In this document: positions 36,573-53,030 of the stretch, one piece after another | Position numbering within the stretch: the stretch's first letter is position 1 | How the letters are laid out: every line of letters starts with the position of its first letter | Assembly (NCBI GenBank): GCA_013298895.1 | Contig: JAAFJM010000005.1 | Span: 106,229-170,228 of the forward strand | DNA from: Bacteroidota bacterium | GTDB taxonomy: Bacteria; Bacteroidota; Bacteroidia; UKL13-3 | DNA length: 64,000 bases | Reading direction: 5' to 3' | The notes under the pieces: generated by a model | Told to the model about the DNA's origin: nothing | The model's database searches: none | Seen by the model: the letters and a program-made list of their open reading frames with translations, nothing else | Program-made: the position numbers and the translations under genes

Positions 36573-37160
36573 ATGAACAAAATTACTCGAATGAATCCAA
36601 AATATATAAATGAATTTCCATACAATATTATATTTGATGAAGAACTTGATGAACGTTCCATAAGTGATACACTGATTGATACTATTTACAGCGATAATAG
36701 AACTAGGTATTTTAATAAATACTTTAAACAAACAAGCGAGTTTTTATACCCTTCCAATCATAAACTAAAACATAGAATAGCAGAGCAAAACATTAATAAA
36801 ATTTCTTTCATAATATTTGGCTTGGCTGTTATAGGCTGTATTTGCTATAACAATTGGGGTAAAGCTGATTACGAAAATATAATTCCTCAGTACCTACTTT
36901 TATTTATTATTCCTTACTTAGGTATTTTATCAATAATTAAACGCCTCGGAATAAAAACTGGATTGGTATTTATATTTGATGAAAATAGCTTTACCATTGA
37001 AGATCGAAGTTATGAAAGGATACAAGAATTTAAATACAACGAAATAATTGATGTACTCATCGTTCAAAGGCCTTCCGATAGTAAATTCAGTGGAACTTAT
37101 TTAATAATTATTGACAAAGACAAAGTATGTTACAGGTTTAACGTGAGCAATTTTAGCTAA
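36573..37160 (+). CDS. Hypothetical membrane protein
   Basis: Two central hydrophobic helices. No homology recognised. Confidence 0.35.
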   Translation: MNKITRMNPKYINEFPYNIIFDEELDERSISDTLIDTIYSDNRTRYFNKYFKQTSEFLYPSNHKLKHRIAEQNINKISFIIFGLAVIGCICYNNWGKADYENIIPQYLLLFIIPYLGILSIIKRLGIKTGLVFIFDENSFTIEDRSYERIQEFKYNEIIDVLIVQRPSDSKFSGTYLIIIDKDKVCYRFNVSNFS

Positions 37161-37890: not shown

Positions 37891-38319
37891 ATTTAAAGCC
37901 TAATTACCATTGATTAGATATTATAAACTATTTGAAATTTAAACTTTATTAAATTAAAATCTTTAACATCCATTCTTTTTACATAAAATAGAATTAGACT
38001 TTTGATAGACTTTTTTAATAAAAAACTAATTTTCAATAAAATAAATAATCAAATATTAAAGTAAAATATAATTAAACAATAACACCAAAAAGTGACTAAA
38101 AATGAAAAAAATTAACCATTTTATGTAAAATCATCAAATTGAAATTTTCATTTAAAAAAATACAAAGTATAAGTGTTAATTTTAAGCATTTAAAAAAAAA
38201 TGATATGAAAACAAAGAAGGTGTGTCAAAATTGGGAAGTAAATTGTATTGAATAATGTTTACATTACTAAAAATTAATAAACTCATATAAAAACACTTTG
38301 ACAAATTAAATTACTTATT

Positions 38320-38760
38320 ATGTTTGACTCTGCAACATTGATAAGTATTGCCCGAACACAAATGAATTTACCCGTTACTTTCGATTCTTCCTATGTAAAT
38401 TATGGTTTGGTATCGTTTGGCGGAACCGATTCTACAATTGTTGTTCACCCAACTAATTCTGAAAATCAAGTTGCCAAAGTGATTAAAATCAATACTGCCG
38501 AAGTTTGGGCAGGAACTACCATTTCTATGGCTGTAAATCCTGAACCATGATTTAGTGCAGCTATTCCTTTTACTGCCTCAGAAAATGACGCTAAAGCATA
38601 CGTTTACAATATGTTAGGCGATGAAGTGGTTAGCAAAATTAATTTCCAAACAACGGAATAAGAATTATTAACTTAGATACTCGTTCTTTAAAACAAGGCA
38701 CTTGTTTATTGAAAGTTAAAGCAGGTAATGCTGTTAAAACTATCAAATTCCAAAGAGACT
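38320..38760 (+). pseudogene. Remnant of a T9SS type A C-terminal sorting domain (Por_Secre_tail), frameshifted and with an internal stop
   Basis: Three consecutive short reading frames give ...AKAYVYNMLGDEVVSKINFQ... and ...INLDTRSLKQGTCLLKVKAGNAVKTIKFQRD. These are the hallmark CTD motifs IYN.LG.EV...INLS.L..G.Y.LK.. Only the C-terminal ~120 codons remain, and upstream is 500 bp of AT-rich non-coding DNA. Confidence 0.5.
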
Positions 38761-38870
38761 AGTTTTCAAGTTTTACATATAATTGTAAGAATTAGGTTGG
38801 AGCAATCCGGCCTTTTTCTTTTTAAAATATATACTACTTTTGGCATCGTATTTATATACACCAATCTTAA

Positions 38871-39650
38871 ATGAATATACCTATTCTTAGAACCGTAACT
38901 ATTACACGTTATATAACTCCTCTGCGCGAAGGTGGCTCTTTGCCAGCTTTGGCCGAAGCAGATGATAATTTTAAATATGTACTCAAATTTAATGGTTCTG
39001 GCCATGGTACCAAAGTGTTAGTAGCCGAGTTATTAGGTGGCGAAATTGCCCGTGCCTTGGGTTTACAAGTGCCCGAATTGGTGTTTGCTAATTTACATGA
39101 AGCCTTTGGTCAAACCGAGGCTGACGAAGAAATTCAAGATTTATTGAAGGCTAGCAAGGGGCTTAATTTAGCATTACATTTCTTGTCAGGTTCCATTAAT
39201 TTTGATCCAGCAGTTAAAACCATTGAACCTCACTTAGCTTCCAAAATAGTTTGGCTAGATTCGTTTATTACCAATATGGATAGAACATTCAGAAATACTA
39301 ATATGTTACTGTTTAATAGGGAATTATGGTTAATTGATCATGGGGCAAGTTTTTATTTTCACCATTCAGGAACCGATTGGGAAAATGCTGCTAAAACACC
39401 TTTTGCCATTATTAAAAGCCATGTTTTATTGCCGCAGGCCACAGAATTAACCCTAGTTGACGAGGAAATAAAAAAGGTTTTAACGGTTGATAAACTTACC
39501 GAAATTGTAAATTTAATTCCAGCTGAATGGTTGGTTTGGAACGATACTAATAAAACTCCAGATGAGCTGAAAAACATGTATTTGCAGTTTTTAATTACTC
39601 GCTTGAATCATTCTCACATTTTTATAAACGAAGCTCAAAATGCAAGATAA
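38871..39650 (+). CDS. HipA-like / PI3-4-kinase-fold Ser/Thr kinase, short single-domain form
   Basis: YVLKF is a putative ATP-binding Lys. FITNMDRTFRNTNMLL resembles the HipA/CtkA catalytic loop (D.H.KN). WLIDHGASF is the DFG-equivalent metal-binding motif. Confidence 0.5.
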   Translation: MNIPILRTVTITRYITPLREGGSLPALAEADDNFKYVLKFNGSGHGTKVLVAELLGGEIARALGLQVPELVFANLHEAFGQTEADEEIQDLLKASKGLNLALHFLSGSINFDPAVKTIEPHLASKIVWLDSFITNMDRTFRNTNMLLFNRELWLIDHGASFYFHHSGTDWENAAKTPFAIIKSHVLLPQATELTLVDEEIKKVLTVDKLTEIVNLIPAEWLVWNDTNKTPDELKNMYLQFLITRLNHSHIFINEAQNAR

Positions 39651-40023
39651 TCACATATATGAATATGCGGTAATTCGTGTTTTGCCGGTTATTGAACGCG
39701 AAGAATTTGTAAACGTGGGCATTATTTTATTTTGTAAAAAAGCCAATTTTATAAAAGTGCATTATACTGTAAATGAAGCTAAACTATTAGTTTTTTCAGA
39801 AAAAATTGATATTGAACAAATTAACTTGAATTTACAATCATTAGCTAATATTGCACACGGCATAAAAAATAGCAATCCAATTGCTGAATTAGATGTACCT
39901 TCAAGGTTTAGATGGCTCACAGCAGTAAGAAGTTCAGCCATTCAGCTATCACGTCCACACCCAGGATTGTGTTCTGATTTAGAAAAAACCGCTCAACGAT
40001 TGTTTGAGGAAATAGTTCTTTAG
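39640..40023 (+). CDS. DUF3037-like small protein, translationally coupled to the kinase
   Basis: 127 aa. EYAVIRVLPVIEREEFVNVGIILF matches the conserved N-terminal block of DUF3037. Its ATG overlaps the kinase stop by 11 nt. Confidence 0.5.
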   Translation: MQDNHIYEYAVIRVLPVIEREEFVNVGIILFCKKANFIKVHYTVNEAKLLVFSEKIDIEQINLNLQSLANIAHGIKNSNPIAELDVPSRFRWLTAVRSSAIQLSRPHPGLCSDLEKTAQRLFEEIVL

Positions 40024-40461
40024 CAAACAACATTTAAAGTTCTTATAAATAATCTGCAGTACTATATTTTTCTGCACTAAACTATTGATGTTTGAAGTTA
40101 AATAAATGGTGTAGTATTGTTCATTTTTACAATATACTTGCGGCCCCTAACAAGCCATTTTAGTAACTTATTTACCCATTAAAGTATCAGTTCTTTAGGT
40201 CATAAATATTAACTTTGCTTCGGCTTTCATTTTTTTAGTATTGTAAAAGCCGTTTTGAATAGCATGACTAAAACAATAGGAAAGGTATTCCAATGAACTT
40301 TCGTTCATGTTCTCCAATAGAATGATATACCTCTGCACGATTTGATGATGATTATAAATGTTTATGGTAATGAACCAAGTGCAACTAATAATTGCAAGCT
40401 ATTAACTTTTTCAGGGTATTTTTTAGAAATAATCTAGCTATTACCCCTCCAAAGCTGTGCT

Positions 40462-40745
40462 CTAATAAGTAGCCTTGCTTAAATGGTAGTTTGAATAAAT
40501 GGTGTTTAAATCGTTAAAAGTTTCTTGAAAAGTAAATTGGGCATTTTTGTCTAATGATCTTCCCTCGCCACGTCTGTCATATACAATTACATAAAAGCCG
40601 TTTTCGGTAAGCTTTTTTGATGTTGTACCTTCAAAATTAGCACAATTATAACCAGGACCACCATGCAAAAATATAAGTGGTTTATCTTTGGCATTGCCAA
40701 ATGTTCTAATTAAAAGGGTATATCCAACTGAAGCAACGTTTGTTA
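40462..40745 (-). pseudogene. Truncated alpha/beta-hydrolase (proline-iminopeptidase-like) gene fragment
   Basis: The minus strand encodes ...FGNAKDKPLIFLHGGPG...VIVYDRRGEGRS..., the N-terminal ~95 aa of an alpha/beta hydrolase. It has no in-frame Met upstream (a stop precedes it) and no nucleophile-elbow region downstream. Confidence 0.5.
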
Positions 40746-41264
40746 CAATAAAAATGAAGCAATAAAAAGTAATTTCATAATATTTTTTTGTTTGTTTAAA
40801 CTTATAGATACAAAGCAGAGCAAAATGTTACAGGTTAAAACATTTGTTTTGTAAACTGTCTGATTAAAACAAAGAGCAAATAAAAATATAACTTTCCATT
40901 CCAAATAAGAGCATGAGAAATAGGAAAAACAACAACCATATAACTATTTAAACATTAAATAATAACACTAAATTTACTAGTAATGTTGTAGTTTTTTTAT
41001 AAATAAAAAATATTGAGCGAAAATATAAAAGGGGGTAAAAAAGAATCAAAATAGTGTACAAGTAGAAAAGTTACATCATCAAAAAAAACAAAAAAAAGTT
41101 TGAAAATAATTTTTTTTACTATATTGGTTGTGGTAAATTTTACCATAATTAAATTTAAAATCAATATATTGATCAACAGTTTCGATTAAAAAAATGCATA
41201 AAAAACTATTACGTACATAAAATAAAAAAAATCAATGCTAATGGATAAACTAAACAGATACAAA

Positions 41265-44200
41265 ATGAAAAAAATGTTACTTCAGTGCCTTTTATTTCTT
41301 ACACCAGTCTTAGCATTTGCGCAAAAGGATAAAGTGTTAGTCATTAAATCTGGCAACGGATTTAAACTTACTGTAAATGGAAAAGAGACGTTCATCAATG
41401 GAATGAATTGGGATTATTTTCCAATTGGTACCAACTACAATTATAGTTTATGGAAGCAATCAGATGATGTGATTATTGCAGCATTAGATATTGAAATGCC
41501 CCTTCTTAAAAATATGGGCGTTAATGTTATTAGGCAATATACTGGCGTTCCAGCAAAATGGGTAAAATATATTTATGAAAATTATGGTATTTATACCATG
41601 CTTAATCATTCTTTTGGCCGCTATGGTTTAACTGTTAAGGGCAAATGGGAACCAAATACTGACTACGCTGATCCAAATGTGCGCGAAATTTTATTGAACG
41701 AAACCAAAGAGATGGTAAGGGAATACAAGGAAACACCTGGTGTTTTGCTTTTTTTGCTAGGTAATGAAAATAACTATGGTCTTTTTTGGAGAGGTGCAGA
41801 AACAGAGAACATACCATTTGCCGACAGAAAGTCAACAAAAGCGGCTTATGACATGTACAAACTCTTCAACGATGCTACAAAAGCATTAAAAGAATTAGAT
41901 AGCAATCACCCAATATCAATATGTAATGGAGACTTATTATTTTCAGATATCATTGCCAAAGAGTGCAAGGATGTTGATATTTTAGGAATTAATTGTTACC
42001 GCGGGTCTTCTTTTACTAATTTGTACGATAAAGTAAAAAAGGATTTAAATATGCCCATATTACTTACTGAATTTGGTTCAGATGCCTATAATACGCTGGC
42101 AAATAAAGAAGATCAAGAATATCAAGCCAAAGTGTTACTTAGCAATTGGAAAGAAATATACGAAAATGCTTCTGGAATGGGTAAAAATGACAATAGCTTG
42201 GGTGGATTCACATTTCAGTTTAGCGATGGCTGGTGGAAAACCGGTCAAACAATAAATTTAGATGAACACGATGCCACTGCTTCATGGTCGAATGGCGGTT
42301 ACAAAAATGATTTTGTTTTAGGTGAGAATAATATGAATGAAGAGTGGTTTGGAATATGTGCTAAAGGACAAACAAATGAGCGAGGAACATACGAACTTTA
42401 TCCAAGAGCAGCCTATTATGCTCTGCAAAGTGTTCATCAGTTTAATCCTTACACTGCAAATCCTGAATCTATAAATATTTTGTTTAAAGGAATTTCTGTG
42501 GCAGATGCTACTTTAAGGGCAAGGGGAGATAAAGCGGTGTTGGAGTCTAAAGATAAAGGCAAATTGTATTTAAGTAATTTACAGGCCAATTTTAACACTT
42601 ACCAAACTGGCGGAAGTTTAATTTCAACTCCTACAACTGCTAACCCAGCAAGCACAACATTTCCAAATGAACAAGGCTTCGACCACATGGAATCATTTAA
42701 TATTGGAGTGACAGCAAGACCTGCTCCTAACATGAGGGCAAATGTTCAATTTAATGTGTTAGGTAATGTTGCTACCAGACCAATTGATGAAATATTTTAT
42801 GAAAACAGGGGACGTAATTTAACGGTTCAAACACCAAATGGACCTCAACAGATTAATTCAAACAATAGGTTGCAATTATATAGAGCAAGTTATACTTGGG
42901 ATGCTCAAGAATTTAAGGTAACAGGTTTTTACAGAACCGGCCACTACCATTGGGGGTATGAGGGCGATTTTTTTGGACTTTATCGTGAGGCTAATTACGG
43001 GCCAAATATTGATATTTATAATGGCAATGCTCCTTTTGGTTTTGAAGTGGAAGCAAAGAAAATGTTAAAAGGCTTGAAAATTGCATTTGGCCCTGAATTA
43101 TGGTGGGGTGCAAACCCCGCTTTTCTAGCAAAATATAGTAGAAAATTAATCGGTTTAGATGTAACTGGTATATTCCATGAAGATCTCGTACAAAGGAGTG
43201 ATTTACAAAGTTCATTTGCTGTACCTGTTCCAAAAACGAGAAGATTGACATTAGCGATTGGTAAAAAAACAGAAAAATTCACATTTGATGTGGGTGGAAT
43301 TTGGGGAGGTCAGCCTCTTGTTGGAAGAGGTTTCCAAATGATCCAAGACAATATTGTGTATGTTGATAAAATAAAAAGTACAGATAATTTTGGAGGAAAA
43401 GTAAAACTTACTTATTCAATAGGATCGATACGATGGTATGGTCTTGCGTCTTATATGGGGCTAGTTGCTAACGGTGGTGTAGATCAAACTAAAACTTTTA
43501 CAGGATGGGTACTTAAGGATATTGGAAGTGGAAATATGTACAATGTACTTTCAGGGTTTACCTACAACATTGGTAAATTTCAAATTGCTCCTAATTTCTT
43601 GTATCAAAAACCTTTAGTAGGACCAATTGGGCCACAATTTGCTGCACCAGCCAGGCCAAGAAATATATTAGATGATCCTTTTTCAGTAAGAGGAAACAGA
43701 GAAACTTTGGGTGGAGAGCTTTTACTAACCTTTGACCCTACTCCAGCTACTTGGATGTATGAATGGGACAATGATAGAATGGAAGATGCACAGTTTGCCA
43801 TGAGTACAGGCTTTGTGTATCGCCATCTACCTACTATTCAAGATGCAGCTATTGGTATTCTTGGAAATGGACGTACTACTTTCGTGTTTCCTGGTTCAGC
43901 ACCAGCACAAGATTTGTGGGAAGCAAATACCAGAATGGTTTCCAAAATAAATCCTCAATTCGGTATTATAGGAAATATTTATTTTGGAAATGGACAAGCA
44001 AATGGAAGTGATACCAGAACTATAAATAGATATGGTATTGACATCAGAACCATTTACAAAAAAATGAAACTAATTACGATGGTTAAAATTGATGATTGGG
44101 GACCTTTTGATTACCACAGAGATTTTAACCAAACTTTCCCGCTTCAGTTGATAGGTGATTGGTCAGTAGAAATAGGGAAACCGGACTGGTTTATGTTGCC

Positions 44201-44378
44201 TGGAACAAAACTTGGATTTAGAGGAACCTACCGCACACTAAATAGATACTCCAATAGATATTCACCAACTACGAAAATGAATAACTTAGGTGAAATTGTT
44301 CCAGACCCAAATGCTATTGGATTCCCTGATGGAAATGAGTGGGAATTTAGAACCTATATCCAAATAAACATTAACTAA
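41265..44378 (+). CDS. Secreted clan GH-A glycoside hydrolase domain (GH5-like) fused to a ~600-aa putative outer-membrane beta-barrel
   Basis: Signal peptide (MKKMLLQCLLFLTPVLAFAQ). The N-terminal ~400 aa carry the LFLLGNENNY acid/base and ILLTEFG nucleophile Glu motifs of TIM-barrel clan GH-A hydrolases. The C-terminal ~600 aa are Gly/Tyr/Asn/Trp-rich with alternating hydrophobic residues, typical of OM beta-barrels. The ORF track starts 10 codons earlier at 41235. Confidence 0.55.
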   Translation: MKKMLLQCLLFLTPVLAFAQKDKVLVIKSGNGFKLTVNGKETFINGMNWDYFPIGTNYNYSLWKQSDDVIIAALDIEMPLLKNMGVNVIRQYTGVPAKWVKYIYENYGIYTMLNHSFGRYGLTVKGKWEPNTDYADPNVREILLNETKEMVREYKETPGVLLFLLGNENNYGLFWRGAETENIPFADRKSTKAAYDMYKLFNDATKALKELDSNHPISICNGDLLFSDIIAKECKDVDILGINCYRGSSFTNLYDKVKKDLNMPILLTEFGSDAYNTLANKEDQEYQAKVLLSNWKEIYENASGMGKNDNSLGGFTFQFSDGWWKTGQTINLDEHDATASWSNGGYKNDFVLGENNMNEEWFGICAKGQTNERGTYELYPRAAYYALQSVHQFNPYTANPESINILFKGISVADATLRARGDKAVLESKDKGKLYLSNLQANFNTYQTGGSLISTPTTANPASTTFPNEQGFDHMESFNIGVTARPAPNMRANVQFNVLGNVATRPIDEIFYENRGRNLTVQTPNGPQQINSNNRLQLYRASYTWDAQEFKVTGFYRTGHYHWGYEGDFFGLYREANYGPNIDIYNGNAPFGFEVEAKKMLKGLKIAFGPELWWGANPAFLAKYSRKLIGLDVTGIFHEDLVQRSDLQSSFAVPVPKTRRLTLAIGKKTEKFTFDVGGIWGGQPLVGRGFQMIQDNIVYVDKIKSTDNFGGKVKLTYSIGSIRWYGLASYMGLVANGGVDQTKTFTGWVLKDIGSGNMYNVLSGFTYNIGKFQIAPNFLYQKPLVGPIGPQFAAPARPRNILDDPFSVRGNRETLGGELLLTFDPTPATWMYEWDNDRMEDAQFAMSTGFVYRHLPTIQDAAIGILGNGRTTFVFPGSAPAQDLWEANTRMVSKINPQFGIIGNIYFGNGQANGSDTRTINRYGIDIRTIYKKMKLITMVKIDDWGPFDYHRDFNQTFPLQLIGDWSVEIGKPDWFMLPGTKLGFRGTYRTLNRYSNRYSPTTKMNNLGEIVPDPNAIGFPDGNEWEFRTYIQININ

Positions 44379-44408
44379 TGAAATTCAATACTTATAAAAA
44401 AACAAAAA

Positions 44409-45818
44409 ATGAATATTTTAAGTAAAAAAATTATTTCTATAAGTCTCTTATCTACATTATTTGTTGTTCAATTTGGATGTAAAAGAGATTTATCTAACGA
44501 TGCAGTATTGCCTACGTTTTCAAAAAATGGAGGGATTTTTACCGATAATTTTATTGGTTTAGGCTCTAATTTTTATTTCCCATTTGCTGATGCAAAACCG
44601 GATGTGTTTTCCGTAGATATGAAAGAGGGTTTCGAAAGCAATGCTTCTATAAGAATAGACGTACCCAACAATACTGACCCAACAGGGACTTATGCAGGGG
44701 CTATTTTTAGGGTAGATGGAGCAGGTAGAAATCTTTCAGGTTTTGATGCACTTACATTTTATGTTAAAGCATCTACAGGTGTAAAACTAGGGGATGTAGG
44801 GTTTGGAATAGACTACCTTGGTGACAAATACAAAGTTTCAATACAAAATGTAAATGTAGGTACTGGGTGGTCCAAAGTAATTATTCCTATTCCTGATGCA
44901 TCTAAACTTACAAACGAAAGAGGTGTGTTTTGGTTTGCTGCAGGAACTCAAGGAACAAATGGCTCAGGCTATGCCCTTTGGTTTGATGAAATAAAATTTG
45001 AAAAACTAGGAACTGTAGGCAAACCAACTTCCACTATTTTGGATGGTCAAACAAGCACTATTAAATCATTTAATGGCTCTACTATAAATATAACTGGACT
45101 AGACCATATTTATAACCTTACAAATGGTCAAGATGTTAAAGTAATTTCAACTGCCGCTTATTATAATTTTACCAGCTCTAATCCAACCGTGGCTACTGTT
45201 AATGATATAGGAGTTATAACCGTTTTAGCAACGGGAAATGCAGAAATAACAGCTAGCGTAAATGGTGTTCCAGCCAAAGGGAAAGTTATAATTGAGTCGA
45301 AAGGAGATTTTGTAGGTGCACCGGCTCCAACAAAGCCTCAAAATGACGTAAAATCTATTTTTAGTGACGCTTATACCGATGCAACAACAAGTAATTTCAC
45401 CCCTGGTTTTGGAGGTTCTACAACAATAACCGATATCTTAACAACAAGTACTGGAAAGATTGCTCAGTATAGTAACAATAATTACACGGGAATAATGTTC
45501 ACTGAAAACCCTTTAGACGGAACAACAATGGGATTTTTACATATAGATGCTTACGTTGAGAACGCCTCTACCACAATTGGAATTCAAATTAGAGATATAG
45601 GTGCAAATAAAACCATTAATACCGATGTGAACACAGGAAATCCCATAGGAGATGATAAAGATTTAAGAACTACTTTATCAGGCTTTCAAGCGGGAGTTTG
45701 GAAGTCTTTTGATATACCTTTAAATGGTGCAATCCAAAACCAAAAAGGTAACTTAGGTGCACTTATTGTTACTGGTGGTCCTAATTTTATTCTCGACAAT
45801 ATTTATTTCTATAAATAA
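44409..45818 (+). CDS. Surface lipoprotein with Big_2 (bacterial Ig-like) domain; putative glycan-binding SusE/F-like protein
   Basis: Lipobox (VVQFGCKRD). ISTAAYYNFTSSNPTVATVNDIGVITVLATGNAEITASV is a Big_2 signature. Confidence 0.5.
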   Translation: MNILSKKIISISLLSTLFVVQFGCKRDLSNDAVLPTFSKNGGIFTDNFIGLGSNFYFPFADAKPDVFSVDMKEGFESNASIRIDVPNNTDPTGTYAGAIFRVDGAGRNLSGFDALTFYVKASTGVKLGDVGFGIDYLGDKYKVSIQNVNVGTGWSKVIIPIPDASKLTNERGVFWFAAGTQGTNGSGYALWFDEIKFEKLGTVGKPTSTILDGQTSTIKSFNGSTINITGLDHIYNLTNGQDVKVISTAAYYNFTSSNPTVATVNDIGVITVLATGNAEITASVNGVPAKGKVIIESKGDFVGAPAPTKPQNDVKSIFSDAYTDATTSNFTPGFGGSTTITDILTTSTGKIAQYSNNNYTGIMFTENPLDGTTMGFLHIDAYVENASTTIGIQIRDIGANKTINTDVNTGNPIGDDKDLRTTLSGFQAGVWKSFDIPLNGAIQNQKGNLGALIVTGGPNFILDNIYFYK

Positions 45819-45853
45819 AATAAAGCAAGTTCAATCCTTTAAAAAATGTATTA

Positions 45854-46666
45854 ATGAAGTATATAAATAAAATAATGATAGTGGCTATGCTATTTGTAAT
45901 GCTAGCAGGTTGTGAAGTAGAACCAAAACAAACCCTACCAAATAGAAGCTTCGAGTTGGTTTGGAGTGACGAGTTTGAAGGTGATTCGGGCGTTGCCCCC
46001 AATGCAACTAAATGGACATACGATTTAGGTACTGGTCAAAATGGTTGGGGGAATAACGAACTTCAATCCTATACGAATAAAGCACAAAATGTATCTTTAG
46101 ATGGAAAAGGAAATCTGTTGATAACAGCAATAAAAAATGGTTCCAATTATACCTCTGCACGTATCAAAACGAAAGGAATATTTTCTCAGAAATATGGCAA
46201 ATTTGAGGCACGTATTAAAACACCAACAGGAGCTGGCATGTGGCCTGCGTTTTGGATGTTGGGTGATAATATTGATAGTGTAAGTTGGCCAAAATGTGGT
46301 GAGATTGATATCATGGAACAAAAAGGAAAGTTTTCGAATATTACTTACGGTACTATTCATGGGCCTGGTTACTTTGGTGGCGAAGCTATAAGCTCCCCTT
46401 ATTCAATACCCAATAGCCGATTCGATAATGATTTTTTCATTTACGCTGTAGAATGGAATGAAAGCCAGATTGATTTTTTTGTGAATGGTTATCTTTATAG
46501 AAGAATCACACCTGCTGAAACGAAAGGACAGTGGGTATTCAAACAATCATTTTTTATGATCCTTAATTTAGCAGTAGGTGGAAACTTTGGAGGACCTCCA
46601 AATGAGAATACACCATTTCCAGGAACTATGGCTGTGGATTATGTCAGAGTTTATAAGTATAAATAA
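45854..46666 (+). CDS. GH16 endo-beta-1,3-glucanase (laminarinase) lipoprotein
   Basis: Lipobox (MLAGCEV). ELVWSDEFEG and the GH16 catalytic motif EIDIME (ExDxxE). ARIKTKG, WPAFWMLG. Confidence 0.85.
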   Translation: MKYINKIMIVAMLFVMLAGCEVEPKQTLPNRSFELVWSDEFEGDSGVAPNATKWTYDLGTGQNGWGNNELQSYTNKAQNVSLDGKGNLLITAIKNGSNYTSARIKTKGIFSQKYGKFEARIKTPTGAGMWPAFWMLGDNIDSVSWPKCGEIDIMEQKGKFSNITYGTIHGPGYFGGEAISSPYSIPNSRFDNDFFIYAVEWNESQIDFFVNGYLYRRITPAETKGQWVFKQSFFMILNLAVGGNFGGPPNENTPFPGTMAVDYVRVYKYK

Positions 46667-46780
46667 CTCTGCAACATTGTTATTTGTTATATTTAAATTA
46701 GCTGATAACACTTTTGAAATATAATGTTTTGAAAAAATTAGATTCTTAAAATTTATAAAAAGGTAAATAAATACCAATTA

Positions 46781-49700
46781 ATGACAGGTCAAAATCAAGA
46801 AAAACAAGAGTCTTTAGTAGCAATAAAGCGATTGAAAATTGAAGGTGAAAACTTCTTTTGCATTTCAAACAATAATGAAATGCGTCCATTTTTTATGAGT
46901 ATAGTAAGCGATTCTCATCATTGGATGTTTATATCCAGTAATGGAGGGATTACTGCTGGACGTAAGAGTGCTGAGTACGCATTATTTCCTTATTACACTG
47001 TTGATAAAATTACTGAATCATACGACATTACTGGTTCTAAGTCAATATTTCAAGTAATTCAAAATGACGAAATCCATGTATGGGAACCATTTTCTGAACG
47101 AAATGAAAGCGAATTTCACACTGCTAGAAACCTATATAAAAATGCTATTGGTAATAAAATCATTTTTGAAGAAATAAATCATACGCTTGGGCTTACATTT
47201 AGATATGAATGGAACTCTAGCAATATGTATGGGTTTGTACGTAAATCTACTATAGAAAATATAGGAGATAAAGAACTTAAAATTAATTTGCTAGATGGCA
47301 TACAAAATATAATGCCAGATGGTGTAAGTAGTGATTTACAAAACGCTGCTAGTAATCTTGTTGATGCGTACAAGAGAAATGAATTAGATGCGGGTTCAGG
47401 GATGGGGATATTTGCCCTAAGTGCAATTATAGTAGATAAAGCTGAACCTAGCGAAGCACTTAAAGCCAACGTTGCTTGGTCTCTTGGACTTGATAATCCA
47501 AAATATTTAGTGTCTTCTTTGCAACTTAATGCTTTTAGAAAGGGATTAGGCATAGTTCAAGAAGAAGATGTGAAGGCAGAAAAAGGATCTTATTTCATTA
47601 ATAAAGAAATTACATTATCACCTGGGAATAAAAAAAATTGGTTAATTATAGCTGATGTAAACCAAAGCCAGGCCGATGTTGTTAGATTAATTAATGAGAT
47701 TAAAACCAATAAAGAAATTAGAAAACTGGTAGAAGACGACATAGAACTTGGCTCTCAACGATTAATTGAACTTAATGCATCATCTGATGGCATCCAATTG
47801 TCGGATGATGTTTACAGGGATACACGACATTTTTCCAATACCCTTTTCAATATAATGCGAGGCGGCATTTTCGATTTCAATTACCAAATCGAAAAGTGGG
47901 ATTTAGTTAAACACTTCATTACGGCTAACAAAACGGTTTATGAAAAGCACCATAAGTTGTTTGATGGCTTGGCTGAAACTTTCACAGTTTTTGAATTAGA
48001 AAAATTATCATCTGAAACTGACGACAACCATTTTAAGAGACTATGTGCAGAATACATGCCTTTAAAATTCAGCAGAAGGCATGGTGATCCAAGTAGGCCT
48101 TGGAATAAATTTTCAATCAACACCCGAAGCGCGGTTGACCACTCAAAGGTATTGGATTACGAAGGCAACTGGCGAGATATTTTTCAAAACTGGGAAGCAC
48201 TAGCAATCTCTTACCCTGCCTTTACCAAGAGTATGGTTCACAAGTTTTTAAATGCAACTACTTTTGAAGGATATAATCCTTATAGGTTAACTAAAAGTGG
48301 TTTTGATTGGGAAACAGTAGAGCATGATAATCCTTGGTCGTATATTGGTTATTGGGGAGATCATCAGATTATATATTTGTTAAAATTATTGGAAATTAAT
48401 GAGAAGTATTTTCCTGGTCAATTAAGTAGCCAATTTAATCAAGACCTTTTTGTATATGCCAATGTTCCTTACAAAATAAAGAGTTATAATGAAATTGTGA
48501 ACAACGCTAAAGATACCATAGAGTTTGAGGAGGCGTTGGATGCAAAAATCAGAAAAAAGCGTGACTTAATAGGTTCTGACGCTACACTTTTAGAAGATCA
48601 AAAAGGAAAAATTTATTCCGTAAATTTTATAGAGAAAATATTAGCAACTGTTTTGTCTAAACTCTCCAATTTTATTCCTGGTGGTGGAATTTGGATGAAT
48701 ACCCAAAGGCCGGAATGGAATGATGCAAACAATGCACTTGTAGGGAATGGTGTTTCCGTTGTAACCCTCTGCTACCTGCGAAGGTTCCTTGTGTTTTTTG
48801 ATAAGCTTATTGAGCAAACAGCGGATGAAGATCGCGTTGAAGTATCGAATGAGTTAATCATCTTCTTTAAAAAATTACATACAACTTTTGATGAACATGC
48901 AGCATTGTTAAAAAATGACATCAATGATGCTCAACGCAAAGAAATACTTGATAGTTTAGGTCAAGCAGGAAGTGATTACAGAGAACATATTTACAAACAA
49001 TCATTTTGGGGAGAGAAAAGAACAATTTCATACCGTAGGCTTAAAGCATTTGCTAAAGTAAGTTTACAGTTTATAGAACATACAATCAACGCCAATAAAC
49101 GTGATGATGAGATGTATCATTCCTACAATTTGATGAGCATTCGAGACAATAATGAAATTTCTATTTCTTACCTCAATGAAATGCTCGAAGGACAAGTTGC
49201 TGTGCTGAGTTCGGGTTACCTATCTCCAAAGGATGCCTTAAAACTATTGGATAGTATGAAGAAGAGTGCGCTTTTCCGTCCTGATCAGTACAGCTATTTG
49301 CTTTACCCAAATAAAATACTTCCTAAGTTTTTAGAGAAGAACAATATCCCAAAAGAAGCCATAAAACAATCAAAGCTTATCAATGCAATGTTAGCTGATG
49401 GCGATAAATCGCTTGTAGAGCAAGACATAAAAGGAGATTACCATTTTAACGGTAACTTTAAAAATGCTGCCGATTTAAGTGATGCCATTTCAAAATTGGA
49501 GAATTCAAAGTATGGTCAGTTCATTCAAAGTGAAAAGAAAGCTCTTTTAGATACTTTTGAATTAGTTTTTGACCATAAATCATTTACTGGCCGTTCTGGT
49601 ACATTTTATGGCTACGAAGGTCTAGGCTCTATTTACTGGCACATGGTTTCTAAACTGCAATTGGCTGTGCAAGAAGTATGTTTGCAAGCAATAGAAAAAG

Positions 49701-50236
49701 AAGAAAGTGCCGAGGTAATTGGAAAATTATTGGAGCATTATTACGAAATAAATGCAGGCGTTGGTGTGCACAAATCGCCATCACTTTACGGTGCATTTCC
49801 TACCGATCCATACTCTCACACTCCGGCTAACAGAGGAGCGCAACAACCAGGCATGACAGGCCAGGTAAAAGAAGACATTCTTAGTAGATTTGGCGAATTG
49901 GGTGTTTTTGTTTCCAATGGTCGTTTGTATTTTAATCCATGTTTATTAAGAAAAAACGAGTTTACAACAGAAGACCGTTTGTTTAATTACGTTACCATAA
50001 ATAAGGAACATAAAACTTTTGCACCTGCCCTTGGCTCACTTTGTTTTACTATTTGCCAAGTTCCAGTCATTTACTGTTTATCAAATGAAAATCGTCTTGA
50101 AATTGAAAAGAAAGATGGTAATTTAAGTAAACATGATACCCTGTACCTTGATGCAGAAACAAGCACACAAATCTTTAATAGAACAGGTAAAGTAGCTAAA
50201 ATTACTGTATATGTCAAAGAATCAATATTGAAGTAA
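46781..50236 (+). CDS. Large cytoplasmic protein; candidate beta-1,3-glucan phosphorylase (GH149/GH161/GH94-clan-like)
   Basis: 1151 aa, no signal peptide. Embedded among GH16/GH17/GH30 genes. Size and context match the GH149-type phosphorylases described in flavobacterial laminarin loci. I cannot confirm catalytic motifs by eye. Confidence 0.4.
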   Translation: MTGQNQEKQESLVAIKRLKIEGENFFCISNNNEMRPFFMSIVSDSHHWMFISSNGGITAGRKSAEYALFPYYTVDKITESYDITGSKSIFQVIQNDEIHVWEPFSERNESEFHTARNLYKNAIGNKIIFEEINHTLGLTFRYEWNSSNMYGFVRKSTIENIGDKELKINLLDGIQNIMPDGVSSDLQNAASNLVDAYKRNELDAGSGMGIFALSAIIVDKAEPSEALKANVAWSLGLDNPKYLVSSLQLNAFRKGLGIVQEEDVKAEKGSYFINKEITLSPGNKKNWLIIADVNQSQADVVRLINEIKTNKEIRKLVEDDIELGSQRLIELNASSDGIQLSDDVYRDTRHFSNTLFNIMRGGIFDFNYQIEKWDLVKHFITANKTVYEKHHKLFDGLAETFTVFELEKLSSETDDNHFKRLCAEYMPLKFSRRHGDPSRPWNKFSINTRSAVDHSKVLDYEGNWRDIFQNWEALAISYPAFTKSMVHKFLNATTFEGYNPYRLTKSGFDWETVEHDNPWSYIGYWGDHQIIYLLKLLEINEKYFPGQLSSQFNQDLFVYANVPYKIKSYNEIVNNAKDTIEFEEALDAKIRKKRDLIGSDATLLEDQKGKIYSVNFIEKILATVLSKLSNFIPGGGIWMNTQRPEWNDANNALVGNGVSVVTLCYLRRFLVFFDKLIEQTADEDRVEVSNELIIFFKKLHTTFDEHAALLKNDINDAQRKEILDSLGQAGSDYREHIYKQSFWGEKRTISYRRLKAFAKVSLQFIEHTINANKRDDEMYHSYNLMSIRDNNEISISYLNEMLEGQVAVLSSGYLSPKDALKLLDSMKKSALFRPDQYSYLLYPNKILPKFLEKNNIPKEAIKQSKLINAMLADGDKSLVEQDIKGDYHFNGNFKNAADLSDAISKLENSKYGQFIQSEKKALLDTFELVFDHKSFTGRSGTFYGYEGLGSIYWHMVSKLQLAVQEVCLQAIEKEESAEVIGKLLEHYYEINAGVGVHKSPSLYGAFPTDPYSHTPANRGAQQPGMTGQVKEDILSRFGELGVFVSNGRLYFNPCLLRKNEFTTEDRLFNYVTINKEHKTFAPALGSLCFTICQVPVIYCLSNENRLEIEKKDGNLSKHDTLYLDAETSTQIFNRTGKVAKITVYVKESILK

Positions 50237-50238
50237 TC

Positions 50239-51522
50239 ATGCGAAAAGTTAGTATAACATATTATTTTTTAGTGCTTTTAACTGTTATGCTAACTTCGTG
50301 TGGCTCTCAAAACGCTACCAAAGAAAACTCAAAACAATTGGAGAAAACAAAAACGGCCGCTCAAATTTTAGGTGATTCTAACTACCAAGCAATATGCTAT
50401 GGAGGTTATCGCACAAATACGCGAGATTCACAGCCCTCTGTTTCTCAAATTAAAGAAGACGTGAAAATACTAAGTGCAATGGGCATAAAATTGCTCCGCA
50501 CTTATAATACAAAGTATGACGAGGTAAGAAGTTTGATGCAGGCAATAACTGAGTTGCGCTCAGAGAACCCAGATTTTGAAATGTATGTAATGCTTGGTGC
50601 TTGGATAGATTGCGAAAATGCTTGGACAGAGAAGACACCTAATCATAACAAAGAAAACATAAAAGCGAATACCGAGGAGATTGAAAGAGCTGTTGACCTA
50701 GCAAACAAATATCCTGAAATTATAAAAATAATTGCTGTGGGTAATGAAGCCATGGTAAAATGGGCAGCCAGCTATTATGTAGAACCACATATTATTTTAA
50801 AATGGATTACTTACTTACAAAACTTAAAAAAAGAAAATAGTTTACCTCAAGATTTATGGATTACCTCTTCCGATAACTTCGCTTCTTGGGGTGGTGGCGA
50901 CTCCTCTTACCATGTCAGTGATTTAAAGAAAATATATGAAGCAGTAGATTATGTTTCTATTCATACATATCCAATGCACGACACCCATTACAATCCTGTT
51001 TTTTGGGGATTAACTGCGCAGGAAGAAGCTTTAACGCCAGAAGAAAAAATAGACACTTTGATGTTGCGTTCCTTAAATTATGCAAAAAAGCAATACCTTG
51101 GCGTATCTAATTATATGAAATCTATTGGAATAGATAAACCCATTCATATTGGAGAAACTGGTTGGGCTTCAAGCTCTGATGGTTTGTATGGAAATAATGG
51201 TTCCAAAGCATGTGATGAATATAAATCTGGAAAATATTATAAATTGATGCGTGAATGGACCAATCAAGAAAAAATTACTTGTTTTTATTTTGAGGCCTTT
51301 GACGAGCAATGGAAAGATGCCAACAACCTAAAAGGTTCAGAAAATCATTTTGGATTATTTACCATTGAGGGTAAAGCCAAATATGCACTATGGGAAAAAG
51401 TAGATCAAGGTGTATTTAAGCACTTAAAAAGAGATGGCAATTCAATTGAAAAAACTTACAATGGTAAAGAAGAAGATTTGCTAAAGATGGTTGAATTACC
51501 TAAAATTAAAAATATTAAATAA
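50239..51522 (+). CDS. GH17-family beta-1,3-glucanase/transglycosylase lipoprotein
   Basis: Lipobox (MLTSCGS). IAVGNEAM is the acid/base region and IHIGETGWASS the nucleophile region (GH17 signature x-E-[ST]-G-W-[PA]-S). Confidence 0.7.
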   Translation: MRKVSITYYFLVLLTVMLTSCGSQNATKENSKQLEKTKTAAQILGDSNYQAICYGGYRTNTRDSQPSVSQIKEDVKILSAMGIKLLRTYNTKYDEVRSLMQAITELRSENPDFEMYVMLGAWIDCENAWTEKTPNHNKENIKANTEEIERAVDLANKYPEIIKIIAVGNEAMVKWAASYYVEPHIILKWITYLQNLKKENSLPQDLWITSSDNFASWGGGDSSYHVSDLKKIYEAVDYVSIHTYPMHDTHYNPVFWGLTAQEEALTPEEKIDTLMLRSLNYAKKQYLGVSNYMKSIGIDKPIHIGETGWASSSDGLYGNNGSKACDEYKSGKYYKLMREWTNQEKITCFYFEAFDEQWKDANNLKGSENHFGLFTIEGKAKYALWEKVDQGVFKHLKRDGNSIEKTYNGKEEDLLKMVELPKIKNIK

Positions 51523-53030
51523 TGAAGAACATGAAACAGCATTTATTTTCCGTAAAAACTTTTCTATTGGTGATGACTTGTGCTGTTTTTGTTCAATGTA
51601 ATAATATTAGAAAAATGACTATTGATGTATATGAAACCTCAGAAAACGGAAATTCACTTACGCTTATAAAAGATTTTAAACCCGCTGACGAATCTTTAAC
51701 ATTAAAGGTAAATCCAGCCGAGCAATTTCAAAAAATTACAGGATTTGGAGGGTCATTTACTGAGGCATCGGCCCATTTGTTAAATAAATTGAGCCTTGCC
51801 AACAGAAAAAAAATATTAGACGCTTATTTTAGTCAAGAAGGCGCAAATTATTCTCTAACCAGAACACATATTGCATCGTGCGACTTTTCGTTAAGCAACT
51901 ACACCTATGCCAAAGTTGAAAACGATTTGGAAATGAAACATTTTACAATTGAAGATGATAAAATGGATTTAATTCCGATGATTTTAGATGCCAAGAAAAC
52001 ATCAAAAGAAGGATTTAAAATTATAGCCTCTCCATGGACTTGCCCACCGTGGATGAAAGACAATAAAAAATTTGTTGGAGGGAAATTATTACCCGAGTTT
52101 AATGATGCTTTTGCTTTGTATTTTTCAAAATATTTATCGGCTTATAAAAAAGAAGGAATTGATATTTGGGGCGTAACAGTAATTAATGAGCCACATGGCA
52201 ACGGAAATAACTGGGAAAGCACCTTGTTTTCACCAAAAGAAATGACTGATTTTGTTCAAAACCATCTTGGGCCAAAATTAGAAAAAGACAATTGGGGTAA
52301 AGTAAACATTTTTGGTTACGACCAAAACCGAGCTGGCTTAAAGGAATGGGTTGATGAAATGTACAAAGATGAAAAATCATCAAAGTATTATGCTGGTGTT
52401 GCCATTCACTGGTACGAAAGCACGTATAATTATTTTCCAGATGCACTTCAATATGCGCACAAAAAAGCACCTAATAAATATTTAATAGAAACCGAAGGTT
52501 GTGTAGATTCAGAAGTTCCAAAGTGGCAGGATGATAAATGGTATTGGCAAAAAGAAGCCACCGATTGGGGTTGGGACTGGGCAAGCGAAAAGGACCGTCA
52601 TTTACACCCAAAATATGCACCTGTAAATAGGTATGCAACAGACATAATTGGCTGTTTGAATAATTATGTAGATGGTTGGGTAGATTGGAACATGGTTTTA
52701 AACAAACAAGGAGGGCCTAATTGGTTTAAAAATTGGTGTGTAGCTCCTGTAATTGTAGATGAAGAAAAGGACGAAGTGTATTTTACACCATTGTACTTTA
52801 TAATGGCACATTTTAGTAAATTTATGCGACCAGGAGCTGTTAAAATTGGCTGTGAAATAAATCACAAAGAAGTAATGACAACGGCTGTTCAAAACCCTGA
52901 TGGAAGCATTGTGATTGCATTATTTAACCCTACGGATAAAAAATACAATATTGCAATCAACATCAATAAGGAAATAAAAACAATTGCCATAGATTCAAAA
53001 GCATTACAAACAATAGTAATTAAAAATTAA
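51522..53030 (+). CDS. GH30-family beta-glucosidase/beta-1,6-glucanase
   Basis: Signal peptide. ITGFGGSFTEASA, VTVINEPHG (catalytic acid/base NEP) and the glucosylceramidase-like architecture. Confidence 0.75.
   Translation: MKNMKQHLFSVKTFLLVMTCAVFVQCNNIRKMTIDVYETSENGNSLTLIKDFKPADESLTLKVNPAEQFQKITGFGGSFTEASAHLLNKLSLANRKKILDAYFSQEGANYSLTRTHIASCDFSLSNYTYAKVENDLEMKHFTIEDDKMDLIPMILDAKKTSKEGFKIIASPWTCPPWMKDNKKFVGGKLLPEFNDAFALYFSKYLSAYKKEGIDIWGVTVINEPHGNGNNWESTLFSPKEMTDFVQNHLGPKLEKDNWGKVNIFGYDQNRAGLKEWVDEMYKDEKSSKYYAGVAIHWYESTYNYFPDALQYAHKKAPNKYLIETEGCVDSEVPKWQDDKWYWQKEATDWGWDWASEKDRHLHPKYAPVNRYATDIIGCLNNYVDGWVDWNMVLNKQGGPNWFKNWCVAPVIVDEEKDEVYFTPLYFIMAHFSKFMRPGAVKIGCEINHKEVMTTAVQNPDGSIVIALFNPTDKKYNIAININKEIKTIAIDSKALQTIVIKN

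Follow-up and report, generated by a model that had tools for sequence, protein, structure and literature searches.

Genes for a HipA-like kinase and a DUF3037 protein in the Retron-Sda1 operon of Sphingobacterium daejeonense acted as a stand-alone defense against phage Bas51; deletion of the kinase abolished defense, deletion of DUF3037 was toxic, and a strong association of DUF3037 with HipA-like kinases across genomes was reported (PMC12548924). DS-6 of E. coli, a DefensePredictor system since renamed HipAD, combines a HipA-related kinase (DS-6A) with a DUF3037+DUF1829 protein (DS-6B); a catalytic mutant of DS-6A lost defense, and binding between DS-6A and DS-6B was predicted by AlphaFold3 (PMC13092281). 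Together with PDC-M66, the candidate system under which PADLOC lists the kinase/DUF3037 pairing, these represent the only kind of system in which a role of DUF3037 has experimental support, namely, the neutralization of a toxic kinase needed for phage defense (PMC12548924; PMC13092281). Here, a gene pair of the same two families was analyzed in a stretch of 64,000 nucleotides, referred to as the window, from contig JAAFJM010000005.1 of a Bacteroidota bacterium (assembly GCA_013298895.1).

An earlier reading of the window made from its letters alone, the sequence-only reading, had proposed a toxin-antitoxin (TA)-like or defense module. The proposal agrees with the experiments on homologous pairs and is not new, because such pairs have already been published in this role; the accompanying remark that the function of DUF3037 is unknown has been overtaken by the same work, in which homologues neutralize a toxic kinase (PMC12548924; PMC13092281). 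By analogy with these modules, we lean toward reading the window pair as a kinase toxin and its DUF3037 antidote of the PDC-M66/HipAD kind, in a minimal and domesticated form conserved across Bacteroidota.

Gene anatomy, protein families and linkage

The kinase gene and the DUF3037 gene lie on the same strand and have 11 nt in common, ATGCAAGATAA (Table 1). This overlap of a 259-aa and a 127-aa gene had been noticed in the sequence-only reading and is borne out by the open reading frame (ORF) coordinates and the sequence; it likely couples the translation of the two genes. The pair and both flanking gene fragments recur in an independent Logan assembly and in a JGI metagenome contig, and the arrangement is therefore no assembly artefact. 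Upstream of the pair, TACTTTTG fits TAnnTTTG, the Bacteroidota −7 promoter consensus, and is a putative promoter element of the pair. Elements of this type were present within 100 nt upstream of the kinase ATG at 58 of 75 loci, compared to 25 of 375 background windows. Because a terminator-like hairpin, which appears to separate the upstream pseudogene from the pair, precedes this element, the pair looks like an independent two-gene operon.

Table 1. Features of the gene pair and its immediate surroundings, in window coordinates
Feature	Position	Strand	Basis
T9SS (Por_Secre_tail) pseudogene remnant, N-terminal ~99 residues joined to C-terminal ~63, with stops and a frameshift	38287..38762	+	tblastn against the intact L001 orthologue, blastn, Pfam on orthologues
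Terminator-like hairpin with trailing T-run, downstream of the T9SS pseudogene	38794..38813	+	consensus scan, function inferred
TACTTTTG, fits Bacteroidota −7 element TAnnTTTG, 29 nt upstream of the kinase ATG	38835..38842	+	motif match
Kinase gene, 259 aa, atypical Ser/Thr-type, Pfam HipA_2, divergent Bacteroidota branch	38871..39650	+	ORF, Pfam
11-nt overlap ATGCAAGATAA, DUF3037 start codon within the last kinase codons	39640..39650	+	sequence
DUF3037 gene, 127 aa, single-domain, presumed antidote or partner of the kinase	39640..40023	+	ORF, Pfam
Alpha/beta-hydrolase pseudogene, frameshifted	40397..40775 (about)	-	weak Pfam Hydrolase_4/Abhydrolase_1, frame analysis, similarity to the window's own intact hydrolase

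The kinase matched Pfam HipA_2 (PF20613) above the gathering threshold across most of the profile (E = 2.2e-19; 70.1 bits, cut-off 27; residues 13-247 on profile positions 3-233 of 240), PADLOC PDC-M66A (E = 1.1e-23) and, faintly across the catalytic region, PI3_PI4_kinase. The residues expected of an active enzyme, K39, the G21-G22-S23 loop, N135-x-D137-R138...N142 and I155-D156-x-G158, were conserved at 97% or more in 79 orthologues, which upholds the catalytic loop and DFG equivalent recognized earlier. Identity to homologues is ~60-70% across families. Many public records of homologous HipA_2 kinases are named 'aminotransferase class I and II', which appears to be a propagated mis-annotation.

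An AlphaFold2 model of the kinase, built from a shallow alignment of 33 sequences that were all at least 70% identical, was moderately confident (pLDDT 62.5, pTM 0.68) and showed the atypical kinase fold of the HipA/CtkA/PI3-4K class. The fold proposed in the sequence-only reading was thus reproduced in the model, and a profile search against the PDB gave no significant match to any solved structure, HipA included. A direct sequence link to canonical HipA was considered and rejected, with kinship seen at the fold level only: hhalign against E. coli HipA was not significant, giving a local 12-residue match alone (IARALGLQVPEL / LAKELGLNVPDA), and neither Pfam HipA_C nor Couple_hipA matched at E ≤ 1. 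'HipA-like' is therefore a fold-level label here. The kinase lies outside canonical HipA (HipA_C), and an aminoacyl-tRNA synthetase target, which the sequence-only reading cited for HipA-family kinases in general, should therefore not be assumed.

The DUF3037 protein matched Pfam PF11236 over its full length and above the gathering threshold (E = 2.5e-41; 141 bits, cut-off 22.6; residues 9-126 on profile positions 1-118 of 118), and PADLOC PDC-M66B at profile positions 3-128 of 281 only (E = 5.4e-13). NCBIfam contains no model for this protein or for the kinase. The AlphaFold2 model of the DUF3037 protein was confident (pLDDT 89.4, pTM 0.82), with a predicted three-stranded meander, four helices, a short hairpin, and a C-terminal helix, and no structural relative was detected in the PDB. 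In 45 diverse members, P16, N25, and G27 were invariant, and Y9, R13, R20, E22, G74, R89, F90, W92, L93, S98, Q102, H107, G109, and L121 were at least 90% conserved. Full-length DUF3037 proteins are mostly ~125-135 aa long among 150 listed representatives of 1,131 clusters at 50% identity; the minimal form is the commonest length class among these representatives, yet it is not the form that was tested experimentally.

Linkage was surveyed in a DUF3037-seeded scan with one genome per species, which gave at least 595 matches, of which the best 80 loci were examined. The scan used a tighter alignment (A3), the most diverse one (A1) being too divergent, and it covers Bacteroidota-type relatives of at least ~49% identity. 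Labels placed 79 of the 80 loci in Bacteroidota (Flavobacteriales, Bacteroidales, Sphingobacteriales, Chitinophagales, and Cytophagales). The exception, L026 (CALRIU020000001.1), is a metagenome-assembled genome (MAG) labeled Hydrocarboniphaga daqingensis, a gammaproteobacterium; its pair is 70-71% identical to that of the window and adjoins a Bacteroidota MAG (L039) in the tree, and it probably represents a mis-binned or mislabeled contig, not a transfer.

The kinase gene stood immediately upstream of DUF3037 in 78 of the 80 loci, the exceptions being a contig end and one Flavobacteriales MAG (L042, 3000-4020), in which the kinase has decayed to a recognizable C-terminal part of ~50 residues and the overlapping DUF3037 gene is intact. 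Each of these 78 orthologous loci has an overlap of 11, 14, or 23 nt. In the reciprocal scan of metagenomes, seeded with the kinase, all 79 testable loci had DUF3037 directly downstream, and no kinase was found without it. The habitual adjacency that the sequence-only reading had asked to see surveyed is therefore real. Outside this set, the linkage was kept in Streptomyces, with a 4-nt overlap, and in a prophage-type copy from Klebsiella; in Leptolyngbya (L089, 2739-3411), an intact DUF3037 gene follows an 88-aa ORF, possibly a kinase remnant, near an IS110 transposase. DUF3037 without an intact kinase was seen and the reverse was not; a toxin-antidote pair should show this asymmetry, but the numbers are low. 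The two proteins have diverged together, with correlated pairwise identities (r = 0.89).

Candidate functions and history of the pair

The window pair shares the HipA_2 and DUF3037 families, the gene order, and the overlap of the genes with the PDC-M66, DS-6, and Sda1 modules. The name HipAD, now borne by DS-6, was reportedly given by Brenes and Laub in 2025. The sole prophage-type copy compared with the window pair, from the unannotated record of Klebsiella phage Kp4864-1 (L087, 1917-4310), has the same layout, with the HipA_2 kinase gene followed by the DUF3037 gene on the same strand. There, a CI-like repressor gene (HTH_3 + Peptidase_S24) is followed directly by the gene for a 250-aa kinase (HipA_2, 261 bits) and, overlapping it, a gene whose 280-aa DUF3037 product covers PDC-M66B positions 6-271; this is a typical position of prophage-borne defense cargo. 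The C-terminal ~150 residues of the 280-aa protein had no Pfam match.

If the window pair works as these homologues do, both genes would be transcribed as a small operon from a promoter of their own. One product would be a catalytically active, atypical HipA_2 kinase, and the overlap of its stop codon with the next start codon would tie production of the DUF3037 protein to that of the kinase. The DUF3037 protein would bind the kinase and keep it inactive, as suggested by homology to DS-6/HipAD and the Sda1-linked module. Loss of this restraint, for example, during phage infection or another stress, would let the kinase phosphorylate an essential cell component and so stop growth. The window copy belongs to a minimal subtype, inherited vertically across Bacteroidota and kept by strong selection, whose flanking genes have decayed in this lineage. 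Both the toxicity of the kinase and its neutralization by DUF3037 are thus predicted from the homologous pairs, and we find this account somewhat more convincing than not.

Several observations weigh against it, beginning with the distance of the pair from the tested modules. The window DUF3037 protein of 127 aa ends with its domain, and it lacks the C-terminal domain of the ~280-aa PDC-M66/DS-6 type, whereas DS-6B carries DUF1829, the Sda1 protein has a DNA-binding-like region, and the PDC-M66B profile spans 281 positions. Compared to the Klebsiella phage copy, the kinases are 29% identical over residues 11-161 only, with the C-terminal ~100 residues unaligned and HipA_2 scores of 70 versus 261 bits, and the DUF3037 domains are 24% identical. 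The moderate confidence of the kinase model counts on the same side.

The remaining observations on this side also favor a rival explanation, in which the two genes encode a housekeeping signaling pair, either an obligate two-subunit enzyme or a kinase with its regulator or substrate, that is neither toxin-antidote nor immune, the mobile defense versions being derived offshoots; we judge this possible but unlikely. The pair is distributed across the phylum, and a neighbor-joining tree of the concatenated pair broadly followed taxonomy, unlike typical TA or defense modules. Its chromosomal position is fixed within Flavobacterium and within Chryseobacterium, with differing neighbors between families. 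The 93 non-redundant immediate neighbors contained 133 Pfam families, none in more than four proteins, and no integrase or transposase was among the 25 most frequent families. Matches of these neighbors to PADLOC models (GajB, labeled UvrD helicase, DRT-associated, and Mko; one or two proteins each) probably reflect ordinary UvrD- and PolA-type enzymes. The neighborhood is thus one of housekeeping genes with no defense-island signal.

Selection and searches of mobile elements point the same way. In comparisons with the close relatives L001 and L006, at dS of ~0.2, the kinase gave dN/dS of 0.07-0.09 and DUF3037 gave 0.07-0.14, although the genes next to them have decayed; the ~60-70% identity across families noted above counts here as well. 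No relative was found in 2.9 million viral contigs, and the 50,697 phage records gave a single distant match (24%), to Klebsiella phage Kp4864-1. The 72,556 plasmid records gave eight matches, in large records; seven are classed as non-mobilizable, and one of the eight clearly consists of housekeeping genes. A megablast search with the region returned no plasmid match. The prophage-type pair of E. coli is accessory, present in 289 of 5,426 complete genomes (5.3%), whereas the window subtype is chromosomal and conserved across the phylum and does not show the accessory, patchy, mobile distribution typical of defense systems.

The proteins themselves also leave room for a housekeeping role. The conserved polar set of DUF3037 (R13, R20, E22, N25, R89, W92, S98, Q102, and H107) would fit an enzymatic or ligand-binding function and not just a plug, and Pfam and PADLOC searches found no DNA-binding domain in the pair for TA-style autoregulation. 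Unlike the prophage-type copy, the pair has no adjacent helix-turn-helix (HTH) or repressor gene, and no HTH ORF was seen upstream, where the T9SS pseudogene and then an FKBP gene lie.

Three points speak for the toxin-antidote reading over a housekeeping pair. Homologous pairs act experimentally as toxin and neutralizer and in phage defense (PMC12548924; PMC13092281). Loss is asymmetric: a decayed kinase occurs beside a retained DUF3037, and the opposite case was never seen. A lineage-wide conserved Hip-type TA system is known in Legionella (PMC10653801), and given this precedent, a TA role is compatible with conservation.

Two further explanations are largely excluded. One takes the pair as a split HipA in permuted order, in which DUF3037, like HipS, would correspond to the N-terminal subdomain of HipA and would neutralize the kinase as HipS does HipT; we consider this highly doubtful. 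DUF3037 had no significant similarity to HipS, and compared to HipBST (E. coli O127 and Legionella pneumophila), the window has no HipB and the gene order is reversed. Canonical HipBA of E. coli is no closer, as its HipA has 440 aa compared to the 259 aa of the window kinase, its partner gene lies upstream instead of downstream, and neither HipA_C with an N-terminal coupling domain nor an upstream HipB-type HTH antitoxin is present here. Helicobacter pylori CtkA and the type II PI4-kinases match at the level of the fold only (11-13% identity, from the pLDDT 62.5 model), have no DUF3037 partner, and differ in their biology.

The other, that the pair recently came by horizontal transfer as a mobile islet into a decaying region, had its basis in the decayed genes and AT-rich spacers on both sides and in flanks that differ among L001, L006, and the window, yet it is very improbable: the pair is 94% DNA-identical to L001, and the homology extends to the upstream gene and takes in its 3' end, which makes that junction ancestral; nearby coding regions have a GC content close to that of the pair (0.28-0.40); and tree, synteny within genera, neighbor families, and viral searches all disagree with it. 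Since the tree tracks taxonomy, the position is fixed within genera, the neighbors are housekeeping genes, dN/dS is low, and viral relatives are absent from the contigs searched, the pair was not recently acquired. The 'acquisition or ongoing reshuffling' suggested in the sequence-only reading is not supported for the pair. Only its neighbors have decayed; the pair is an old, vertically inherited resident around which the neighborhood has eroded.

Flanking remnants and other features of the window

Both gene remnants that the sequence-only reading had described next to the pair, and the AT-rich stretches around them, were found again. The upstream remnant was established as a pseudogene by comparison with L001, where an intact 990-aa protein with a type IX secretion system (T9SS) C-terminal sorting domain is encoded directly upstream of the kinase. 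In the window copy, residues 1-99 remain, but ATA replaces the start codon and two stops interrupt the frame; residues 928-953, a frameshift, and residues 954-990 follow, so that residues ~100-927 are deleted. Because the deletion of ~2.5 kb brings together like short peptide motifs (FTASE|NDAKAYVYN versus TVSEKDAKVYVYN), the sequence suggests that it arose by recombination between similar sequences. The L001 gene contains at least three internal repeats (L001 4134-5496), each with ~79-80% DNA identity to the same window segment, 38270-38585. In L006, the gene has been cut back differently, leaving a 126-aa C-terminal stub.

On the minus strand downstream lies the second remnant, an alpha/beta-hydrolase pseudogene with a frameshift, in which a signal peptide is followed by a stop, and the HGGPG motif and the HSFGG nucleophile elbow lie in separate frames; its best Pfam match was weak (Hydrolase_4, 7e-5, below the cut-off). 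The hydrolase gene is broken in L006, too, with additional indels, and L006 and the window are 89% identical across window positions 38578-43975. The flanks of the pair thus vary among these close relatives. Outside both remnants, the spacers are AT-rich, with 15-19% GC near 37900-38350 and 21-23% near 40750-41350. The extreme, 15% GC, is reached at 37900-38200, in the spacer separating the T9SS pseudogene from the FKBP gene; L001 and L006 have a PcrB-family gene ahead of the T9SS gene instead of the AT-rich stretch and FKBP arrangement of the window, and this segment may be a rearrangement junction.

Further out, the neighbors of the pair in the window are genes for pyruvate carboxylase and an FKBP isomerase and a beta-glucan utilization cluster. 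The last comprises same-strand glycoside hydrolases (GH) at 41235-53030, namely, a GH2-like TIM barrel of 1047 aa, GH16, GH17-like, and GH30, and looks like a beta-glucan utilization locus. It also includes two large proteins without a Pfam match at E ≤ 1e-5 (44409-45818, 469 aa; 46781-50236, 1151 aa). A 195-aa ORF at 36573-37160, gene-called in the independent Logan assembly as well, has hydrophobic stretches and no significant Pfam match and may encode a membrane protein.

Meaning for Bacteroidota and the DUF3037 family

Modules of a HipA-like kinase and DUF3037 have only recently been validated as anti-phage, and solely in accessory prophage- or retron-linked forms with an extra C-terminal domain on DUF3037. 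The window pair is a stripped-down form that behaves in Bacteroidota like a stable chromosomal gene pair and not like a mobile immune gene. A true toxin and antidote of this kind would be unusually domesticated, and the bare DUF3037 domain would suffice to restrain the kinase. If it is not a toxin and antidote, the pair would be an unrecognized kinase signaling module shared by a major phylum, with members such as Bacteroides of the gut and Flavobacterium of the environment. In either case, DUF3037, with a confident model and no solved structural relative, is a good target for structure determination.

As a tentative and less probable extension, the minimal pair may be a kinase switch that belongs to the core physiology of Bacteroidota and passes by vertical descent, whether a domesticated toxin-antidote or the ancestral housekeeping form behind the mobile HipAD-type systems, with DUF3037 as a fold without solved relatives that controls or works with an atypical kinase. 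The interest of the pair lies in the contrast between its core-gene-like behavior and a family otherwise known from mobile defense elements.
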